This document shows, piece after piece, positions 8,017 to 54,121 of a stretch of DNA of 64,000 bases. The notes under the pieces are model-generated. The model did no database searches. It was given only the letters and a program-made list of their open reading frames with translations, and was not told the DNA's origin. Position numbers and translations under genes: made by a program. Every line of letters starts with the position of its first letter. The stretch's first letter is position 1. This DNA comes from an uncultured Clostridia bacterium (lineage in GTDB: Bacteria > Bacillota > Clostridia > Oscillospirales > Acutalibacteraceae), in the NCBI GenBank assembly GCA_937898195.1, contig CALEJD010000040.1:24052-88051 (forward strand), in the 5' to 3' direction.

Positions 8017-9372
8017 ATGGCAAAACCTATGTTAGATATAGTGCCATCTTATGACGTAACTAAAGGTGTCACTTTAACCTTTAACGCAAACTATGGAACA
8101 AACTTGGTTCGTGGTAGCGAGTTAACAATCTATGACCAAGACCAAAATGTTGTGGCTCGACATTTATATGTCCCAAGTACATATAACGAAGCATCGACCA
8201 TACATAAAATTCCATCAAAGCAAGCACTTATAAACGAATCTATTACACCATCAGCGTATAGTGCTTCGGTTTCATATTCCGTTGACGCTGTGGTGGCTTA
8301 TGAAGATGCTACATACATTTGCATAGCACCCACTATTGGTAATGCGCCTACAAACACTACATATTGGGAGCGTATATTACCAGTTGAGTGGGAAGCAAGT
8401 TACATATCAAATGACTTTGCTACAAAATACGACAACCAAAAGCAATTACAATTTTCATTAATGACGTTTGTTTCGTGTGAAATAGACCCCATTATGGGAG
8501 ATTTTATTTTATCTGGAATAAGTGAACCCAGTAACACAAGGGGTGCATGGACATTACCTACTCCGACAGTTACATTTGATGAAATTGATGCGACAATTAG
8601 TACAACATCGTATACTATTGGTTTAACCTATGATACTAATCAGACTACAAGTGTAGGATTGGTTTATAATCCACCCAAGGTAGTGCAATTCGATTTATAC
8701 AACGCAGACGATGGGACATTAGTTAAATCCAGCGGCGAAGTGTACAATTCTGGAACGATGATATCTGACACGGAATATTACATGAATTACACATTTTCTG
8801 GGCTGGTAAATGGCACAACATACAATATTACCGCCACCATTACGTCGTTATTGGGCATGGAAGTTTCTGGTGAAAGTACAGATTTTCTTGTTAATGCTAC
8901 GACATATCAAATTAGTACGTTTAATGTAGAAAACGATTCTTGTAATGGTGGTGTAAAAGTTGTTAGTAATATCCTTGATGTATATGGGGAATCTAATCGT
9001 ACACCAGTGGATGGCGAACTTGATTTGACTAATGGTGGATATTGTACATGGACAGATGGACTTGGATTTACAAATAATTGGACGGCAAGAATTTGGGGTT
9101 ATGACTTTGAAGTAGCAGATACTATACCAAGCGACCAACATATTATTCACATGGCATCAACACAAGCAAGGGGAGTAATTGATGGATATATTGTCGAAGA
9201 CCCAGATGGATATAGGTTTGATTTATATGTATATCCAATTGGATACGATGGTGTAACAATGTACTTCCAAAGTAATGTGGTTAGTACACTTGGCACAAGC
9301 GCAGACCCATTGTGTATTGCTTTTGGATTTGATTACAATAATTCTGGTTCATACTTCGTAAAGATTGTGTAG
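8017..9372 (+). CDS. tail/baseplate structural protein with a CBM5/12-like motif
   Basis: SD AAAGGAGAG; YSVDAVVAYEDATYICIAPTIGNAPTNTTYWERI resembles chitin-binding type 3 repeats. Confidence 0.6.
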   Translation: MAKPMLDIVPSYDVTKGVTLTFNANYGTNLVRGSELTIYDQDQNVVARHLYVPSTYNEASTIHKIPSKQALINESITPSAYSASVSYSVDAVVAYEDATYICIAPTIGNAPTNTTYWERILPVEWEASYISNDFATKYDNQKQLQFSLMTFVSCEIDPIMGDFILSGISEPSNTRGAWTLPTPTVTFDEIDATISTTSYTIGLTYDTNQTTSVGLVYNPPKVVQFDLYNADDGTLVKSSGEVYNSGTMISDTEYYMNYTFSGLVNGTTYNITATITSLLGMEVSGESTDFLVNATTYQISTFNVENDSCNGGVKVVSNILDVYGESNRTPVDGELDLTNGGYCTWTDGLGFTNNWTARIWGYDFEVADTIPSDQHIIHMASTQARGVIDGYIVEDPDGYRFDLYVYPIGYDGVTMYFQSNVVSTLGTSADPLCIAFGFDYNNSGSYFVKIV

Positions 9373-29619: not shown

Positions 29620-30603
29620 TTATCTCCACCTTTCGCTCTGAATTTCTGGTATAAAACTTAATATGTGTTTAATAACGTCTACTGTCCATCCATCGCCAAT
29701 AACATCGCAAGCCTGTCCGTATGAAAGATTATCACAATAGCCAGTGGGTAGAGTCTGCGCCATTTCCATTTCTCTTCTCGTTAAAAATCTGCACCAATCC
29801 TTATACGGCATCATGCCACTATTAGGACACCTATCTTGTTTGCGACTAATACAACCGACCTTATCAGCGTTGATTAAATTAGCACATTTGGTCATTGTGT
29901 TAATGGGCGATTCGCCATTACTCCACATACGAATTCGACTTGGCGTTTTATTTGGTATCGCTTCGTTGCACCTATTTATATCCGTATCTATATAGTCTTG
30001 ATAAGATATATGTTTGTCTTTTGGGGATGTTACATTTGGTATATTAGTCCAATAATATCTCGCTCTGGTTTGATATGATACTAACTTACTATCAATCATA
30101 ATGCCATTTACGTCAAGGTAATTATCTAATTCTTCCTTACTGTCTTTTCTCATTCGGACGTTTTCAAGCAAGAAATATTTGGGTTGTATTTCTTTAAGTA
30201 ATCTTATATACTCATAGAACAATACGCTTTTATCACCTTTCAGCCCATCAATTGTATTTCCGTTACCGCTTGTTACTCTTAATGTACTAAAATTCTGGCA
30301 TGGACTACCACCTATAATTATATCTGGCTTTTCTTCCAAGATTTTGGTAGGTTCTTCTCCGTAACATTTATTATGATGAAAATCCCAATCGGAATATAAT
30401 GCGTGTGTCTCTTCGTCCCAATGAAGTTTAGTCACATCACCAACCTGTATGGTGTTAGGGTAGTGTAGTTGAGTCGTTTCAATAGCAATTTTCTTAATTT
30501 CAGACGAGATATACTTGTTTTTAACGCCATCAAAAGTTATACCAAGACGCTCAAACGCAATTTGTCCACAACTAATGCCATCAAATAAACTTAATACTAT
30601 CAT
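29620..30603 (-). CDS. DNA (cytosine-5)-methyltransferase
   Basis: Motif I LSLFDGISCG, motif IV GGSPCQNFS, motif VI LLENV, and C-terminal GDGWTVDV. Confidence 0.85.
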   Translation of the reverse strand: MIVLSLFDGISCGQIAFERLGITFDGVKNKYISSEIKKIAIETTQLHYPNTIQVGDVTKLHWDEETHALYSDWDFHHNKCYGEEPTKILEEKPDIIIGGSPCQNFSTLRVTSGNGNTIDGLKGDKSVLFYEYIRLLKEIQPKYFLLENVRMRKDSKEELDNYLDVNGIMIDSKLVSYQTRARYYWTNIPNVTSPKDKHISYQDYIDTDINRCNEAIPNKTPSRIRMWSNGESPINTMTKCANLINADKVGCISRKQDRCPNSGMMPYKDWCRFLTRREMEMAQTLPTGYCDNLSYGQACDVIGDGWTVDVIKHILSFIPEIQSERWR

Positions 30604-35853: not shown

Positions 35854-37077
35854 CTATTCCTTTGCTTTATAATTATATATTGGTTTGATTATGCGCTCAA
35901 TTTTTACGGTATCTCCAATGTGGTTTATAATTTCATCAGCTGGTTTATAAGCCATTGGGGACTCATCTAACGTAGATACATCAACAGATGTGGTATATAT
36001 TCCCACCATAGATTCCTTAAAATCAATCATGGGGATGCTTTCTTTTGCTTGTTTTCTACTCATTAGCCGCCCTGCGCCATGTGGAGCCGAGCAATTCCAA
36101 TCTTCATTTCCTTTTCCAATAGCAATAATGCATCCATCACGCATATTCATAGGGATTACAACCCTTTCTCCTTTCTTTGCGGAGATTGCCCCTTTACGAA
36201 CCATGTTGGTTCTCGGCTCTATGTAATTATGGATTGTTTCAAAAGACTCATTTGTATCCCACTTCATTTTTTCCATAATTGTACGAGCTATCATAAAACG
36301 ATTATCAGAAGCAAATGTTTGACACAGACGCATATCATTAAGATAATCTAATCGGTCTTTTCCCGTGAGATAGCTAAGTTCTTTTGGTAATTCTGGTATA
36401 TATTTTTTAAACCACTGATTTAATTCTTGCCACGCACTGTTAATTTCTTTTTCTTTCCCTTGTGATTTAAAATTTTCAATTAACTCATTATGATAATAAT
36501 TTATTTTATGTTTTCTATCACATTTTTCAATTGCAAGATTTTGATAATAGTCTGCGACCTGTTTTCCTAAGTTGCGAGAACCAGTGTGAATAACTAAATA
36601 CCTATTACTTTCGGAATCTTCGTCAATTTCAATAAAGTGATTACCTCCACCAAGAGTACCCAATGATTTTTGTAATCTATCTATATTTTGTAAATGCTTA
36701 TAACAGCGAAACCTTCTAAAAAAATATTCTTTACATATTTCAATTGAATGTATACTGCGACCGCTCGGTATGTATCGTTTTACAACTTCATCTAACTTCT
36801 CAAAGTCAATATAAATTTGTCCAAGATTAACTGTAAGCATACCGCAACCAATGTCTACTCCTACAATGTTCGGTATAACCTTATCGCCTAAGTCGGCTGT
36901 AAAACCAATAACACAACCAGCACCAGCGTGTACGTCGGGCATAATGCGAATTTTGCAATCCGAAAAAGCGGGGTGCCCTGTCAAAGTTTTAATTTGTTCG
37001 AGTGCTTCATATTCAATATTATCAGTAAATATTTTAAGATTCAAAGTAGCTCCCCCCCCCTTTTTTTTTAAGGACAA
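35854..37077 (-). CDS. rtcB: RtcB-family RNA 3'-phosphate ligase (start uncertain: TTG 37077 or TTG 37044)
   Basis: Motifs MPDVHAGAGCVIG, GVDIGCGM, GGGNHFIE, HTGSRNLG and APHGAGR. Confidence 0.85.
   Translation of the reverse strand: MSLKKKGGGATLNLKIFTDNIEYEALEQIKTLTGHPAFSDCKIRIMPDVHAGAGCVIGFTADLGDKVIPNIVGVDIGCGMLTVNLGQIYIDFEKLDEVVKRYIPSGRSIHSIEICKEYFFRRFRCYKHLQNIDRLQKSLGTLGGGNHFIEIDEDSESNRYLVIHTGSRNLGKQVADYYQNLAIEKCDRKHKINYYHNELIENFKSQGKEKEINSAWQELNQWFKKYIPELPKELSYLTGKDRLDYLNDMRLCQTFASDNRFMIARTIMEKMKWDTNESFETIHNYIEPRTNMVRKGAISAKKGERVVIPMNMRDGCIIAIGKGNEDWNCSAPHGAGRLMSRKQAKESIPMIDFKESMVGIYTTSVDVSTLDESPMAYKPADEIINHIGDTVKIERIIKPIYNYKAKE
37052..37069. repeat. C9T9 homopolymer pair (A9G9 on the coding strand) at the glycosylase-rtcB junction
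   Basis: tccccccccc ttttttttta read directly from the sequence. Confidence 0.9.
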
Positions 37078-37502
37078 AACCTCATTTCTTCATCAAACCT
37101 ATTTGCTATAACCATCCATTCGCTTTCGCTAATACCACCACAATCATATTTTTCTTGTAAGTTACATAAACATTGGACGAGATATCTATCATTATGCCAA
37201 TTAACAAATACATCCTCTATTGGTATGGTTAATATGTCATAACAATCCTCGTATGCAAAATCAAAATACTTTATAAACTTTTCAAATTCAAGTTTATAAT
37301 CACGATTTAACATATAACATTGTACTAACATAGTATATCTGATAAAATGCTCAATAGGGTAATCCATAATTTTATTTACAAGAATATGATTCGGCGTACC
37401 TTTATCTCGTATACTTTTAGCAATGCAACAACACTCTCGCCATTGCCCAAGAAGTTGCTGGCGTGGTAAGTATTGAACTAAATCTTTGTGCCACAACCGC
37501 AT
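37068..37502 (-). CDS. pyrimidine-dimer DNA glycosylase-like protein (DenV / TIGR02328-like)
   Basis: N-terminus MRLWHKDLVQYLPRQQLLGQWRECC matches the MRLWH..LP.QQLLGQHRE signature. Confidence 0.6.
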   Translation of the reverse strand: MRLWHKDLVQYLPRQQLLGQWRECCCIAKSIRDKGTPNHILVNKIMDYPIEHFIRYTMLVQCYMLNRDYKLEFEKFIKYFDFAYEDCYDILTIPIEDVFVNWHNDRYLVQCLCNLQEKYDCGGISESEWMVIANRFDEEMRFCP

Positions 37503-39356: not shown

Positions 39357-39364
39357 CATTTTTT

Positions 39365-46793: not shown

Positions 46794-47637
46794 TATCTTT
46801 TATTTTACTCATGGAATCACCATTATTTACATATATTTCCACGGCGTAGTCTTGGATGTTTTGGAACGCAGTGGCATCATACGTTAACCTACCGTGTACT
46901 TTCCATTTGGGGTCGCCCCGCAGAAGCATCCGCTCTTCTCTCACATCTTCATCTGCATCAATGTAAATTACCATAGGAATTTTCTTCCCATCATAATGTT
47001 TGAGCAGATACTCCACTCCATCAACATCAATGACATACAAATCTGCTTCGTCAATCTGTTCTCTGGTTGCTCCATATAATTCGCCGTTGTAATTGGTAAC
47101 AGCACACATGTTTTCCAATTCATTAAATTTCTTCTCTGAAACAAAGATGTGCGCATCGTCAAACACATTGCGTCTTTGTCTTGTGGTGTATGATTTGACT
47201 TCCTTCAACCCATAGGTTTCTCGCATGTATCTGCACAACATAGATTTGCCGCTCCCAGATTTACCTACGATTAAAATAATATAATCACTCATTGTTCTTT
47301 TCGTCCCTAATTTCTTTTGATACTCTTTTTCCTTTTCTAATGAAGCAATCTCTTTCTTTCTTGATAACAACACACGGATACTTTCGTCTTGTAAGTATCC
47401 ATACACTTTTCTTAATGGGTAGCCGTGCTTGAGCATATCTTTCGCTTTGAATTCTACAAACATTGGCACGTTGCTCAAATCACAATACCTTGATACTTTA
47501 AGACAATTATTTTCTAATTCTTTTTTCTTCCTACGTTTTGCTATCCAATCTTGAAGTTGAATGAATCCAAATGCCATGGTGCCAAATGTGACGATAATCG
47601 CAACACATAGCAACAAAATTGTTGTAAACTTAACCAT
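46750..47637 (-). CDS. guanylate-kinase-like nucleotide kinase with an N-terminal transmembrane anchor
   Basis: TM segment FTTILLLCVAIIVTFGTMAFGFI; P-loop GKSGSGKS followed by SYTTRQRR. Confidence 0.6.
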   Translation of the reverse strand: MVKFTTILLLCVAIIVTFGTMAFGFIQLQDWIAKRRKKKELENNCLKVSRYCDLSNVPMFVEFKAKDMLKHGYPLRKVYGYLQDESIRVLLSRKKEIASLEKEKEYQKKLGTKRTMSDYIILIVGKSGSGKSMLCRYMRETYGLKEVKSYTTRQRRNVFDDAHIFVSEKKFNELENMCAVTNYNGELYGATREQIDEADLYVIDVDGVEYLLKHYDGKKIPMVIYIDADEDVREERMLLRGDPKWKVHGRLTYDATAFQNIQDYAVEIYVNNGDSMSKIKDIAREIYGKYFKKEE

Positions 47638-48467
47638 CAGAACACCTCAATATCCATCGTGTCTCTAACTACCTTCTGTTCATTCCTAATCTTGGCGTAA
47701 CGTGTAGTAACACTGATATCGCTATGCCCCATACATAATTGAATTCTTTCAAGTGGCACATTGTGGTCAAGCATGGACGTTGCCCACAGATGTCTAAAGG
47801 AATGGTTGTGAACATTCTTATCAACTCCAGCCTTTTTAGCGGCGAGTTTAAGAGACTTATTAATCCCTTCCTTCGTCATCGGTGTGCCATTATTACTAAC
47901 AAATAAGTTGTCGATGCAATTATTGCGGATGGTCATATAATGGTTAATATACTCCATGGTCTTGTCATTAATATGTACCATCCTGCGCTTGCCACCCTTG
48001 CCAAGAATATTTACATCATTACCATTAAAGTCATCAACCTTTATGCTAATCAGTTCAGATACACGCATACCAGTAGAAGCCAAGGTTGCCATGATTGCCT
48101 TGGTTCTAACACCATTAGCCGTACACCCTACAGCATTAAGCATCATGTTTACGTCTTCCGATGTTAGCGTTGGCTCTACTTTGTTGGTAATGCGTGGGGG
48201 TTTTAGTTTCTTGGTGGGATTGGATTCCAGCACATCAATGTCAAAAAGAAAATCATAGTATCTTTTCACAGACCCTATACGCCTTGCGATGGTTGCGCTG
48301 GACAGACCTTCGTTGGTCATACAGTTCTTCCACTCAAGCAGGTCTGCGAGTGTGATTTCTTCTTCTGGTTTGTTGACATAGTTAAGCATAGATGTGATGT
48401 CTGCGCCATAACTTGCCTTCGTATTCTCATTATTGAATGTTCCAAGATAAAGATTTAATTTATTCAT
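47637..48467 (-). CDS. tyrosine recombinase (XerC/D / phage integrase family)
   Basis: R in GMRVSEL, HSFRHLW, GHSDISVTTRYAK (R-H-R-H/Y catalytic pattern). Confidence 0.8.
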   Translation of the reverse strand: MNKLNLYLGTFNNENTKASYGADITSMLNYVNKPEEEITLADLLEWKNCMTNEGLSSATIARRIGSVKRYYDFLFDIDVLESNPTKKLKPPRITNKVEPTLTSEDVNMMLNAVGCTANGVRTKAIMATLASTGMRVSELISIKVDDFNGNDVNILGKGGKRRMVHINDKTMEYINHYMTIRNNCIDNLFVSNNGTPMTKEGINKSLKLAAKKAGVDKNVHNHSFRHLWATSMLDHNVPLERIQLCMGHSDISVTTRYAKIRNEQKVVRDTMDIEVF

Positions 48468-48516: not shown

Positions 48517-48545
48517 ATTATACTACTCTTATGACGAAATGTCAA
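48517..48545 (-). promoter_or_regulatory. consensus promoter directly upstream of the recombinase gene
   Basis: TTGACA-17 nt-TATAAT; the -35 box lies inside the 3' end of the methylase gene. Confidence 0.65.
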
Positions 48546-49290
48546 GCGCTTTCTCTATTCTTTCTTTCGAAATATTAAAATATTGTTCTTCTAATTCTAT
48601 CCCTATAAAATCTCGATTTGTATTTATGCATGCTATTCCTGTTGAGCCAGACCCCATGCAATTATCAAGAACAAGATTCTTTTCTTCTGTATAAGTTTTA
48701 ATTAAATACTCAAGTAATTCTGTTGGTTTTTGTGTTGGGTGCAATCTCTGTCTTGGTGGCACTGGTGGAAATTTTATAATACTGCTTGGATGTTTATCTG
48801 TGTATGTATTATACTGTTTTTTCATATTATTATTATGCAACATTTTGCATGTATTCAATCCACCACCATTATAGACAGGCTTATCTCTTTGAATTTTTTG
48901 TGGATAATAAACCATAGATGTATCATTACTTGTATAGCATGCTTTACCATCACTAAACACACATATTAATTCATGTATTCTACCACATTGATAATTCATT
49001 ACTTGAAAATTACTTGGCTTTCCTTTATCCCAAATCCAATCGTATTTATAATCTTCTAAATTACTATATCTTAATGTAGTTGCAAATGGTTCATTAGCGA
49101 ATAAAACTATTGCATGTAATGGTTTAATGATTCTTTTATATTGTTCCCACAGAGCGTCAAATGGAATCACGCTATCCCACTTACAAGCAGTGCTCCCATA
49201 TGGTAGGTCACATAATATCATATCTATACATTGGTCTGGAATATCATTCATTAATTCGATACAGTCGCCATGATATATATTATATTTCAT
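48529..49290 (-). CDS. DNA methyltransferase, N6A/N4C beta class
   Basis: N-terminal ILCDLPYG (DPPY-type) and C-terminal DNCMGSGSTG (FxGxG-type). Confidence 0.8.
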   Translation of the reverse strand: MKYNIYHGDCIELMNDIPDQCIDMILCDLPYGSTACKWDSVIPFDALWEQYKRIIKPLHAIVLFANEPFATTLRYSNLEDYKYDWIWDKGKPSNFQVMNYQCGRIHELICVFSDGKACYTSNDTSMVYYPQKIQRDKPVYNGGGLNTCKMLHNNNMKKQYNTYTDKHPSSIIKFPPVPPRQRLHPTQKPTELLEYLIKTYTEEKNLVLDNCMGSGSTGIACINTNRDFIGIELEEQYFNISKERIEKALDISS

Positions 49291-49495
49291 TTAATACCCT
49301 CTCCACTTCTGATGTATGTTTAATCCAGTTTATCATTTCTTCTTCTGTATTGCCTGTAATCATCTTTTCATTATCCCATGCTTGACAATCTAAATATGAA
49401 TCAACAATGTCTAAAAGCATGTTATTATTGAACACATATCCCTTATATGTTAGATATTCTGAAAATATATTTTTTATCGTTCTATTGTTATCCAT
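49280..49495 (-). CDS. hypothetical protein
   Basis: Lies between the two methylase paralogs. Confidence 0.55.
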   Translation of the reverse strand: MDNNRTIKNIFSEYLTYKGYVFNNNMLLDIVDSYLDCQAWDNEKMITGNTEEEMINWIKHTSEVERVLNEI

Positions 49496-49497
49496 TA

Positions 49498-50244
49498 TTA
49501 CTTCTTTTGATTACTTATATTTTCTATCCTTTCTTTTGCGATATTAAAATACCCTTCGTTTAATTCCATCCCAATAAATTTACGATTTGTATTTATACAA
49601 GCAACACCTGTGGAGCCAGAACCCATGCAGTTATCAAGAACTACATCGTTTTCATTTGTAAATGTTTTAATTAGATTTTCCAATAATTTAATTGGCTTCT
49701 GAGTTGGATGCAAGTTGCTTGTCAAGCAATCACGTTGATATTTCCAGACTTGCGTCGGGTATCGCCAACCAGTATCTTTATATTCAAATACCCTCTTTTC
49801 TTGTTGGTCAGTTAGCGTGCCTAATTTGCCATTCTTTACTTTATTACTCCTTGGCTTACCATCATACTTTATCATTTGCGGGTTATATGTTGGTTGCTTA
49901 TTATAAAATATTGATATTGTTTCTATTGTTTTACCAACACGCTTTTTAACTTGATTGACGTTAGTTAATCTTTCTTTTTCCCAATATATATCATATTTAT
50001 ACCACGACAGATTTGAACATCGCAATAAACTGCTAAATGGTTCTTGTCCAAATAATGCAATGACACCATTAGACTTAATAATACGCACATATTCCTTCCA
50101 TAAATCATTAAATGGGATAATTGTGTCCCATTTACATGCAGTTGTACCATAAGGCAAATCACACAATATCATATCTACGCTACCACTTGGAATGTCCTGC
50201 ATTAATTCTATGCAATCGCCTTCATGTATTTCAAAATCACTCAC
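49498..50244 (-). CDS. DNA methyltransferase, N6A/N4C beta class (paralog of 48529..49290)
   Basis: Motifs ILCDLPYGTTACKWD and LDNCMGSGSTG. Confidence 0.8.
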   Translation of the reverse strand: MSDFEIHEGDCIELMQDIPSGSVDMILCDLPYGTTACKWDTIIPFNDLWKEYVRIIKSNGVIALFGQEPFSSLLRCSNLSWYKYDIYWEKERLTNVNQVKKRVGKTIETISIFYNKQPTYNPQMIKYDGKPRSNKVKNGKLGTLTDQQEKRVFEYKDTGWRYPTQVWKYQRDCLTSNLHPTQKPIKLLENLIKTFTNENDVVLDNCMGSGSTGVACINTNRKFIGMELNEGYFNIAKERIENISNQKK

Positions 50245-50265
50245 TTTAATACCTTTCCCTTATTA

Positions 50266-51077
50266 TTAAATACTTTGTAATCTGTTTTTTATAATCTCAC
50301 AATAATCCTCACTCAATTCTATACCAACCCATCTTCTGTTAGTTAGAGTAGCCATTTTTGCAGTCGTTCCACTTCCCATAAATGGGTCTAAAATTATATC
50401 GTTTTCGTTAGACCAAGAAAGTATATGGTCTTTTACTAAACTTTCTGGGAATGGTGCTGGATGCTTTTTAGAAAACTCGTCATGACCTGTAGTTTGGTTA
50501 TATTTCCATATATTGAACCTTCTTCCCATTTTTTTAGTCTCTATCTTACGATACTTTCTACCTTCGTCTGCTGTATATTTATCTCTATTCGTGTTTACGA
50601 CACTATTGCCAACAACTTTATTTTCTCTGTCATATATTAAATTATACGTTGATATTTTTCCTTTAGAAAGTACAAACATATATTCAAAATTTTGAATATA
50701 ACATTTATTACTTCCACATGCACCCACACCATTTTTTTCATATATCATAGTATCGAGTACATTCCAACCAATTTCTTTGAAATATAACGCTTGCTTGAAG
50801 GAAGTTAAAGATTCACAACCGTCTTTTGTTGCATCACCCACAATCCAAACACAAGCCCCCCCGTCTTGGTTACTCTTAACAATTCTTTAGCAACATTTTC
50901 AAAATCAAAAGAATATCCTTCTTTGTATTTTCTTAAATCGTCGTATGGTGGACTTGTAACAGTCAAATCAATACATTCATCATCTATGTCTCTTAATTTC
51001 TTAACACAATCTCCTTGAAGCAAGAATCCAGACTTGTCTTTATAATATGATGTTTTATATAATTCTCTTAAATTCAT
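50266..51077 (-). pseudogene. SPPY-type DNA methyltransferase interrupted by a frameshift at a G7 tract (C7 at 50856..50862 on the plus strand)
   Basis: N-terminal ORF (TSPPYDD...RVTKTGG) and C-terminal ORF (ACVWIVGDATKDG...PFMGSGTT) join into one ~270-aa methylase if the run has 8 G. Confidence 0.75.
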
Positions 51078-51223
51078 TATTCCTTCTCCTTAAACTTTTT
51101 ACACCTTTTACCACACTCGCATTTACGCAATTCGCCAGTCTTTCCAAAGTAATCGCAGAACTTATCCCATCCATAAATATAGATATCATCTTGATATTCG
51201 CACTTATTACATCTTTCGTCCAT
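51077..51223 (-). CDS. 48-aa Cys-rich protein (CNKC...CECGKRC)
   Basis: SD AGGAG 9 nt upstream; TAATG junction with the downstream gene. Confidence 0.5.
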   Translation of the reverse strand: MDERCNKCEYQDDIYIYGWDKFCDYFGKTGELRKCECGKRCKKFKEKE

Positions 51224-51317: not shown

Positions 51318-51629
51318 TTATCTCCTTGCGTTTATACGTTCTATAACATCTTCTGCGGTAAGAAATCCAACAACAGTATCGCCATCTGTTTTCGGGTCAA
51401 CAATGTTGCCATAAATCTCCAGAAGTCCATCTTCATATCCATAAGAACCGTACTGACACATAGCGTCCCATTCACATTCCTTGCCGTCTTTAGGTACACA
51501 AATTTGATGTCTGTCCATAATATATACTGACAAATCTTCATCACATTCCCACCGATGACTAACTTCGTATCTCTCGTATGGTATGTTGTTTTCTTTTAGA
51601 TACACTTCCAGTTTATCGAGTTCGCTCAT
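51318..51629 (-). CDS. hypothetical protein
   Basis: Lies within the operon. Confidence 0.6.
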   Translation of the reverse strand: MSELDKLEVYLKENNIPYERYEVSHRWECDEDLSVYIMDRHQICVPKDGKECEWDAMCQYGSYGYEDGLLEIYGNIVDPKTDGDTVVGFLTAEDVIERINARR

Positions 51630-52291
51630 TATCTATTCTCCTTTAGCCATTTACAATATTCATCCCAATATCCATGCTTGTGTAGCCAGTTATTAGCCTT
51701 TAACATTTCCAACTTCATTTGTGCTTTAGCGTTTGCTCCACAATGAGATTCAATAAATTCATCTTGCGACCTTGCAATCTGCAAACCTTTGAGTTCACCC
51801 CTTGCTTTTTTATATTTGTCCATATCCTTCTCCGGTATGGTATAGGGGGCTTTAGGTAGGTTCCGATTACTAAATGGGGATATGGATGCGCCACTCGTTT
51901 TCAATTTTATAATTGGGGCAAGCGCATCTAAATGCTTGGCATCAAATGTGAAGTACACTTCCCAATCCATAATATCCACATCGTTTACGAATCCAGCGTT
52001 ATGCAATTCATCCACAATTTTATCAACAGATTTACCCCCAACCTTACCAATTACGGACTCGTAATAACTACGCAGGACATTGGTTCCTAATTTCAGTTTT
52101 GGACAGTAGCATGCCAATTCGCTACCAACGCCATGCTTGATTTCAATTCCAGAGCGTCCACTCAAGTAAAAATCTCCAAATGATTCTTCAAGGTTGCCAT
52201 CTTCGTCTCGCACAAAATCATTTGTGCTCTGGTCATAATGCGCCTTAACCCTATACTTCCCTTTATAATGCTGTGCCAGATAGTTATCCAT
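51629..52291 (-). CDS. hypothetical protein
   Basis: ATG 52291 lies 8 nt after AAGGTGA (the track ORF starts at TTG 52330). Confidence 0.6.
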   Translation of the reverse strand: MDNYLAQHYKGKYRVKAHYDQSTNDFVRDEDGNLEESFGDFYLSGRSGIEIKHGVGSELACYCPKLKLGTNVLRSYYESVIGKVGGKSVDKIVDELHNAGFVNDVDIMDWEVYFTFDAKHLDALAPIIKLKTSGASISPFSNRNLPKAPYTIPEKDMDKYKKARGELKGLQIARSQDEFIESHCGANAKAQMKLEMLKANNWLHKHGYWDEYCKWLKENR

Positions 52292-52400
52292 TTTTCTTAT
52301 CACCTTCTTTTGTGGTACTGGAGAACACAATGCGTTTCTCCCCAGCCTTCTTGGGTCTGCCTACAAAGGCATAATTCGATTTCGATTTTGATTTTTCCAT
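52284..52400 (-). CDS. 38-aa basic protein with a GRPKK (AT-hook-like) motif; first ORF of the long leftward operon
   Basis: SD GGAGGT 7 nt upstream; directly downstream of the promoter at 52427..52455. Confidence 0.45.
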   Translation of the reverse strand: MEKSKSKSNYAFVGRPKKAGEKRIVFSSTTKEGDKKNG

Positions 52401-52426: not shown

Positions 52427-52455
52427 ATTATACCACAAGTTGTGTCGCATGTCAA
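52427..52455 (-). promoter_or_regulatory. perfect consensus promoter heading the replication module
   Basis: TTGACA-tgcgacacaacttgtgg-TATAAT. Confidence 0.75.
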
Positions 52456-53855: not shown

Positions 53856-54121
53856 AAAAAGGGGAAGTGTGAAGTGTAAAAAAAAAAAAAAAAACGAATG
53901 GGAAACGATGGTATTTCTTATTCAAGATGCACGATTCTGTACAATATGCCCATCAGACGCTCTATTTTACGTTTTGGCGGGATTTATAATGTAAAGGATG
54001 TTTATATTGACTACCTATATAAAAGTCCATTAGAACGTAAATTAGGGCTTCCATATATTTCCAATTCAACAGAATCGGGACGCATGCTTTAATGCTTTAG
54101 TGTGATAAAGTGAATGTGGAT

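Follow-up and report, generated by a model that had tools for sequence, protein, structure and literature searches.

Phase variation of DNA methylases, by slipped-strand mispairing at simple-sequence repeats in their genes, is a classic theme in bacteria, exemplified by the Type III mod phasevarions of Haemophilus, Neisseria and Moraxella (reviewed in PMC13076061 and PMC12707154) and by the Type IIG enzyme cj0031 of Campylobacter jejuni, which is switched by a poly-G tract (PMC4889913). As summarised in PMC12823448, poly-G tracts in Campylobacter phages are hypermutable, give rise to phase-variable expression and allow escape from bacterial resistance (Sorensen et al. 2021, Cell Rep 35:109214). 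Contingency loci are also found in T-even phages, where an A9 run in T2 agt toggles glucosylation with a trade-off between sensitivity to TgvAB and sensitivity to McrA/BC (attack on modified versus unmodified DNA); this switching was shown in a clonal lysate, at a frequency of ~7e-4 (Gomez, Barrick and Waters, bioRxiv 10.1101/2025.10.21.683753). Here we describe a methylase gene in 64,000 nucleotides (nt) of phage DNA binned with an uncultured Clostridia bacterium (positions 24052-88051 of the 106-kb contig C40, GenBank CALEJD010000040.1; hereafter the window, whose coordinates are used throughout). The gene, on the minus strand at 50266-51077, is broken at a run of seven G residues, and we consider it probable, judging from related sequences, that slipped-strand changes in the length of this poly-G run act as a contingency switch of an orphan phage methylase, which is OFF in the window. 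This kind of switch, long known in bacteria, has only recently been described in phages, and the phage methyltransferase case is an extension of it; full-text literature searches and recent reviews yielded no published description of a poly-G-switched phage methyltransferase.

With the phase-variable methyltransferases of bacteria the locus shares a simple-sequence repeat within the coding sequence, a frame shift and natural ON and OFF alleles, and with cj0031 also the poly-G. Unlike them, it concerns a predicted orphan beta-class, Type II-like phage methylase and not a chromosomal Type III, I or IIG enzyme, and unlike the phasevarions its likely role is the marking of phage DNA, not the regulation of host genes; the contig is without host flanks. 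The tracts of the Campylobacter phages reportedly lie in receptor-binding genes. As far as their published summary goes, our locus is like them in placing poly-G in a phage gene and in the phenotypic diversity expected within a phage population, and unlike them in that it affects a DNA-modification enzyme. Among experimentally studied cases the nearest is T2 agt, likewise a homopolymer in a phage DNA-modification gene and subject to the same bet-hedging logic, yet agt is a poly-A glucosyltransferase case established by experiment, whereas here a poly-G switch in a methyltransferase is deduced from natural ON and OFF alleles in metagenome consensus sequences. Finally, the gene resembles the phage orphan N6-adenine/N4-cytosine (N6A/N4C) methyltransferases (PF01555, phrog_67) in domain, motif order, size and lack of an adjacent nuclease, and departs from most of them in that their Gly-Gly motif is written without a G run.

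The methylase gene and its break at a G7 run

The window holds four methylase genes, three PF01555 members that are adjacent at 48529-51077 on the minus strand and one PF00145 member; several methylases per phage are a common anti-restriction arrangement. The original prediction had described the adjacent genes as N6A/N4C methylases, two with a DLPY and one with an SPPY motif, and had counted a fourth with the C5-cytosine gene at 29620-30603. Coordinates, motifs and PF01555 matches agree with the former statement and a 91-bit PF00145 match with the latter. All three adjacent genes also match phrog_67, the split one being scored through its read-through. The SPPY gene has the following parts, in amino acids (aa) and open reading frames (ORFs):

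50266..51077, minus strand: whole SPPY-type beta-class methyltransferase, predicted OFF here; 270 aa if the run is G8; PF01555 matches in both pieces; 98.9% nt identity to the alleles of contigs L008-L015
50856..50862, minus strand: candidate switch tract, a G7 homopolymer (C7 on the plus strand) in codons Thr72-Gly73-Gly74 (ACG GGG GGG)
50805..51077, minus strand: N-terminal piece, 90 aa, with 74 native residues including the motif IV SPPY, 16 out-of-frame residues and a TAA stop
50266..50841, minus strand: C-terminal piece, a 191-aa ORF from an internal GTG, with the target-recognition region and motif I (FMGSGTT)

That the gene is split into these two ORFs exactly at the C7 had also been claimed beforehand, and it can be read directly in the sequence. 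The plus strand at the break is ...CACAAGCCCCCCCGTCTTGG..., with the C7 at 50856-50862; the minus strand reads AAG ACG GGG GGG CTT GTG TTT, and the frame closes 17 codons on. The N-terminal ORF carries TVTSPPYDDL and ends with ...RVTKTGGLVFGLWVMQQKTVVNL before the stop, so that the 90-aa product keeps motif IV and loses the target-recognition and S-adenosylmethionine (SAM)-binding parts. Contingency loci are expected to have a homopolymer of at least seven bases within a coding sequence, where gain or loss of one base alters the frame, and the G7 of codons 72-74 is such a run. With G8 the two frames fuse to ...RVTKTGGACVWIVGDATKDG... (K T G G A C V W I V G D A T K D G) and continue to the normal stop, giving 270 aa.

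The pieces match complementary parts of one domain. Against PF01555 the C-terminal piece scores 123 bits (gathering cut-off 26.7) over profile positions 63-220, and the N-terminal piece gives a weak match to positions 1-50. The read-through protein matches the phrog_67 DNA methyltransferase at 4e-61 and has TSPPYDD at residues 41-47, followed by DPFMGSGTT near residue 222, that is, motif IV N-terminal to motif I. Both profile score and motif order thus place the split gene in PF01555. No nuclease gene adjoins it, and we take it to encode an orphan phage beta-class DNA methyltransferase with predicted DNA methylation activity. The SPPY form of motif IV suggests an N4-cytosine enzyme, although the solved relatives are mixed, with N4C (8s9n, 1boo) and N6A (6pbd, 1g60) enzymes found at similar E-values. 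The nearest solved structures are TTHA0409 (2zie), a DNA cytosine-N4 methyltransferase (8s9n), CcrM (6pbd) and M.MboIIA (1g60).

Length variation of the run in related phages

The claim that one extra G fuses the frames is borne out by a natural protein. The read-through product differs by a single residue from P0001, a 270-aa protein in public assemblies, which is encoded on eight fetched contigs (L008-L015) from several assemblies, all with G8. Between the window and these contigs 9 of 813 nt differ, which by codon amounts to seven synonymous changes and one non-synonymous change. The contigs share with the window a 1.2-kb block at 95% identity; the upstream flank is at 77% and the downstream sequence is without match. 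We considered whether they belong to the same phage as the window and rejected this, since only the 1.2-kb module is common and they are otherwise different mosaic phages. The methylase is accordingly a module that passes from one phage to another.

For the wider comparison we used 26 alleles (15 distinct), namely the window and the DNA of 25 related loci, with run lengths read from assembled consensus sequences. They fall into three lineages, each with ON and OFF members:

Lineage A, ACG-G8-CT-TGT, TGGACVW: ON with G8 in 8 contigs; OFF with G7 in the window
Lineage B, ACG-G7-CTC-TGT, TGGLCVW: ON with G7 in L109-L111; OFF with G8 in L097 and L102-L105, from five different runs
Lineage C, ACG-G8-TC-TGC, TGGVCVW: ON with G8 in L108, L112 and L113; OFF with G9 in L106 and L107, from two different runs

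In all eight OFF alleles the break lies at the run, both halves are open and there is no other stop or lesion. On a maximum-likelihood tree of the 26 alleles five ON/OFF changes are needed and well-supported branches force at least four; on this tree the states cluster no more than labels do after shuffling (shuffle mean 5.7). In accordance, exact-sequence cluster lists place full-length and split products together in three 90%-identity clusters. The split products there consist of an N-terminal piece of 84-90 aa and a C-terminal piece of 191-195 aa beginning with MGDATKD, and a census of the clusters gives ~18 contigs ON versus ~10 OFF, about a third OFF. Near-identical ON and OFF alleles that differ in tract length, with recurrent switches confined to the tract, are what is looked for in a contingency locus, and they point to a fast-mutating ON/OFF switch in related phages from many samples. 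Four readings had originally been offered for the run, namely a switch, a slippage site, a pseudogene and a sequencing error; the recurrence of ON and OFF alleles at the same run in three sub-lineages and in independent samples favours the contingency switch.

An obvious objection is a consensus error, whereby the true sequence is G8, the gene is intact and one G was dropped in assembly. The difference is indeed one base in a homopolymer, where errors classically occur; G8 is found in all of the nearest relatives, and in a second methylase of the same metagenome-assembled genome (MAG) a G run likewise breaks the frame. Set against this, the genome has 195 long runs, and at only four of them, the focal one included, does a one-base change merge two frames. 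The other three are not taken as breaks, since one looks non-coding and two lie at the upstream edge of an adjoining ORF, one of these in a ribosome-binding site; 136 A8/T8 and 37 G6/C6 runs yield no other convincing break. A T8 run near 39359 that had come up as a candidate in this frame-merging test was a false positive, as the open frames at that position do not look like coding sequence. Both split products of the window, including that of 191 aa, are moreover listed from NCBI, Logan and ENA and hence seem to stem from more than one assembly with G7. Given that independent runs and assemblers repeatedly yield OFF alleles, with gains as well as losses of G and one case of +2, real length variation is the rule at this tract, and an error in the window is in our estimation unlikely.

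The same alleles bear on whether the gene is a plain pseudogene, inactivated once and now decaying around an incidental tract. The gene is broken in the window, and as three other methylases are kept its loss might be tolerated. Decay of this kind should have left further disabling mutations in relatives, the test named in the original prediction, yet all eight OFF alleles are otherwise intact and their changes mostly synonymous. The ratios of synonymous to non-synonymous differences between pairs of OFF alleles are 12:0, 11:2 and 5:2, in line with the seven to one seen between the window and the intact allele. Because differences among OFF alleles are almost all synonymous, the gene appears to have been kept under purifying selection, which persisted in lineages that are now OFF. 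Together with at least four independent changes, all at one site, this largely refutes the pseudogene reading, which we regard as very unlikely.

Programmed recoding would yield the full-length enzyme from G7, through a -1 ribosomal frameshift on G_GGG_GGG or through RNA polymerase slippage. In form the run matches X XXY YYZ, a shift of -1 would produce exactly the G8 protein (TKTGGACVW), and some leaky slippage on a run of G7-G9 is plausible. Against it, no stimulatory fold is seen in the 96 nt past the run (z = 0.42, with 138 of 200 shuffles folding equally well), the nearest relatives read in frame as they stand, and the OFF alleles of lineages B and C need the opposite shift; the out-of-frame layout is not conserved. 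The -1 slippage that had been offered is therefore poorly supported, and recoding is highly improbable. Nor do the data favour a two-piece enzyme, in which the 90-aa and 191-aa pieces assemble into an active methylase and G7 is not an OFF state. Both halves are open in all OFF alleles and an in-frame GTG lies 14 nt past the run, but no good ribosome-binding site precedes this GTG, the break falls inside a conserved turn of the catalytic domain, the N-terminal piece ends in 16 foreign residues, and open halves are equally explained by recent switching. We give this explanation hardly any credence.

Is the tract itself unusual? In the 106-kb contig ~1.5-2 G/C runs of at least seven are expected and three are seen, and a single such run is thus not unusual; genome-wide they are depleted, with seven seen versus 16-22 expected. 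Two things go beyond chance: the sole frame break of a conserved gene falls at this run, and relatives differ in the length of the run. Among the Gly codons of the phage GGG is the rarest (13.7%), and GGG-GGG is used at none of the 90 Gly-Gly pairs in its long ORFs. Within the ~80 kb of related loci, G/C runs of at least seven occur in methylase genes only. The closest tract-free relatives have AGT GGC GGA TTG or CGG GGA GGG CTT at this site, and the G8+CT of lineage A looks like the descendant of a G7+CTT ancestor in which a G was gained and the adjacent T lost, a compensated frameshift that replaced Leu by Ala.

Several considerations weigh against a contingency switch and have to be set beside this evidence. 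The ratio of OFF alleles in the comparison set, 8/26, is biased because ON and OFF contigs were partly hand-chosen, and the cluster census suffers less from this bias. Much the same pattern would come from a mutational hot spot in a gene on which selection is relaxed, and the synonymous bias among OFF alleles would also be expected if the OFF calls were consensus errors. Most distant homologues lack the run, their K-x-G-G motif being written GGT GGA and similar, with runs of 2-5; one exception is L062 (IMG/VR), with an in-frame G8. The tract belongs to a few lineages and not to the whole family.

Genome context and other G runs

The bin that holds the contig (G000) comprises 2.0 Mb in 113 contigs, is 88% complete and has 36% G+C. 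Its RecA is nearest to that of an Acutalibacteraceae MAG (88%), followed by rumen Oscillospirales MAGs. Beyond the window the contig carries phage-type genes only, with neither host flanks nor a terminal repeat; the link of the phage to its host, a rumen Clostridia MAG, is one of binning alone. Sixty GTDB relatives of the MAG contain neither the focal locus nor the second methylase locus described below. Exact and degenerate DNA patterns across the tract found no match in metagenome_contigs, viral_contigs or genome_contigs, a megablast comparison of the locus with INPHARED phages returned a trivial 72-bp match only, and tblastn found no cultured relative above 54% identity. The other features around the methylases and the fourth methylase are:

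49498..50244, minus strand: DLPY-type beta-class methyltransferase, 248 aa, intact; full-length PF01555 match, 118 bits; phrog_67
48529..49290, minus strand: DLPY-type beta-class methyltransferase, 253 aa, intact; full-length PF01555 match, 94 bits; phrog_67
49280..49495, minus strand: 71-aa ORF between the DLPY methylases, from the ORF list; no Pfam or PHROG match
51077..51223, minus strand: 48-aa Cys-rich ORF, from the ORF list, its stop overlapping the methylase start
51629-52330 and 51318-51629, minus strand: two genes of no assigned function, ORFs between the promoter and the 48-aa ORF
52427..52455, minus strand: perfect sigma-70 consensus promoter, TTGACA-17-TATAAT with TG (12/12 in a consensus scan)
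29620..30603, minus strand: C5-cytosine methyltransferase, the fourth methylase; PF00145, 91 bits; TIGR00675, 94 bits

The two DLPY methylases are 49% identical to each other (BLASTP), and the 48-aa gene is also called upstream of the methylase in L008, L009, L012, L013 and L015. From 52330 to 48529 the minus-strand ORFs are close-set, with gaps of ~20-200 bases, and the single weak terminator-like hairpin within this series (50134-50109) lies inside the DLPY gene at 49498-50244. The promoter at 52427..52455 is the likely start of a putative transcription unit that runs through the three methylases.

In two related contigs the surroundings of the methylase homologue are of an anti-restriction or SAM-supply type. 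In L098 (1957-2988) the homologue adjoins a MetK-like SAM synthetase, and in L097 (385-1598) it lies near a Lar restriction-alleviation gene and another PF01555 methylase. Downstream of the window's methylases is a XerD-like tyrosine recombinase gene (phrog_1 integrase; 47637-48467, minus strand), into which points a second perfect 12/12 sigma-70 promoter at 48517-48545 (minus strand) that overlies the 3' end of the last methylase. In lineage C the gene directly after the methylase encodes a 272-aa recombinase with a weak match to MrpR_C_cat, of the SPbeta master-repressor type (L106:3682-4500, L107:2493-3311), and because of this match the window recombinase might be a repressor rather than an integrase.

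The window has other long homopolymers. The longest run in the genome, A17 at 53878-53894, lies in a gene-poor region upstream of the early island. At 37052-37069 a C9 is directly followed by a T9, which on the minus strand is A9G9. The site separates the stop of a Pyr_excise pyrimidine-dimer glycosylase gene (37068-37502) from the probable TTG start of an RtcB RNA-ligase gene (35854 to ~37035) and may be a length-variable ribosome-binding or spacer region. Outside the window, a G8 run at G000:C40:91480-91487 is apparently intergenic, as is a G7 run at G000:C30:8458-8464 that lies in the ribosome-binding region (AAAAAAAGGGGGGGAAGTAATG) of a gene. The product of the latter gene is presumably a phage Sak/Rad52-type annealing protein, by a sequence motif.

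Length changes of G runs are also found in other phage methylases. A second phage-like region of the same MAG, contig C10, which has a terminase gene, carries a DPPY-type PF01555 methylase (L087, G000:C10:37034-37700; 225 aa if in frame) that is split at a G10 (C10:37515-37524). Its 91% identical relative L114 is in frame with G8, and C10 is thus the case of +2; two ENA contigs of this family, L207 and L208, carry G10, their in-frame length being G9. The 90%-identity cluster lists of this second family hold no further ON/OFF pairs. L008, which carries the focal gene as an intact G8 allele, also encodes another SPPY methylase (called at 8672-9349), which loses its N-terminus to a G9 at 8621-8629 and would be in frame with G8 (MKYKIFNEDCVATMQRMIRGGYSEVDTILTSPPY...). 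In L209 (MT839655.1), a human-faecal phage scaffold whose methylase is 52% identical, CCC-G8-TA stands at the same K-x-G-G motif (locus 448-455) and is out of frame, G7 restoring the frame; by its sequence, a poly-G run has arisen here independently at the equivalent structural position.

The proposed switch and its consequences

The sequences themselves show the break, the length differences, their recurrence and the lack of further damage; from these we infer a slippage mechanism, reversibility within one population, a base specificity and a selective benefit, which would fit together as follows. The SPPY methylase lies with the two other methylases in a putative early operon. Its Thr-Gly-Gly is written as ACG GGG GGG and the next codon also begins with G, which creates the run of G7-G9, and slipped-strand mispairing at replication would gain or lose a G at high frequency. 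Through such gains and losses the gene would flip between ON, which in lineage A is G8, and OFF. With the G7 of the window, translation would end after 90 residues and the SAM-binding half would be lost. Phage populations would accordingly be mixtures of genomes with and without this methyl mark, and the switch probably varies which methyl marks the phage DNA carries. The likely benefit would be bet-hedging, as the ON state may guard against a host restriction enzyme of matching specificity and the OFF state may escape methyl-dependent (Type IV) restriction or save the cost of marking.

A bolder proposal, to which we incline somewhat less than to its opposite, is that selection has made poly-G runs a device which gut and rumen Firmicutes phages carry specifically in their DNA-modification genes. 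Each mark would then be toggled independently, and the population would always be fitted to both Type II and methyl-dependent Type IV hosts. The G7 of the window, the G10 of C10, the G9 of L008 and the G8 of the human-gut scaffold would be instances of one combinatorial strategy of 'epigenetic coat-switching'.

Phage methylases are usually taken as fixed anti-restriction equipment. If the switch is real, a single phage genome under-describes the host range of its population, and the linking of phages to hosts by methylation in metagenomes can mislead. Likewise, methylases annotated as "frameshifted" in viral catalogues should then be kept and not put down to error or pseudogene formation. For testing this, G7 and G8 offer a concrete pair of alleles. 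The notion of phage contingency loci, a recent proposal, has so far drawn on the tracts of Campylobacter phages and the agt gene of T-even phages, and the switch proposed here would extend it to the uncultured phages of anaerobic Firmicutes.

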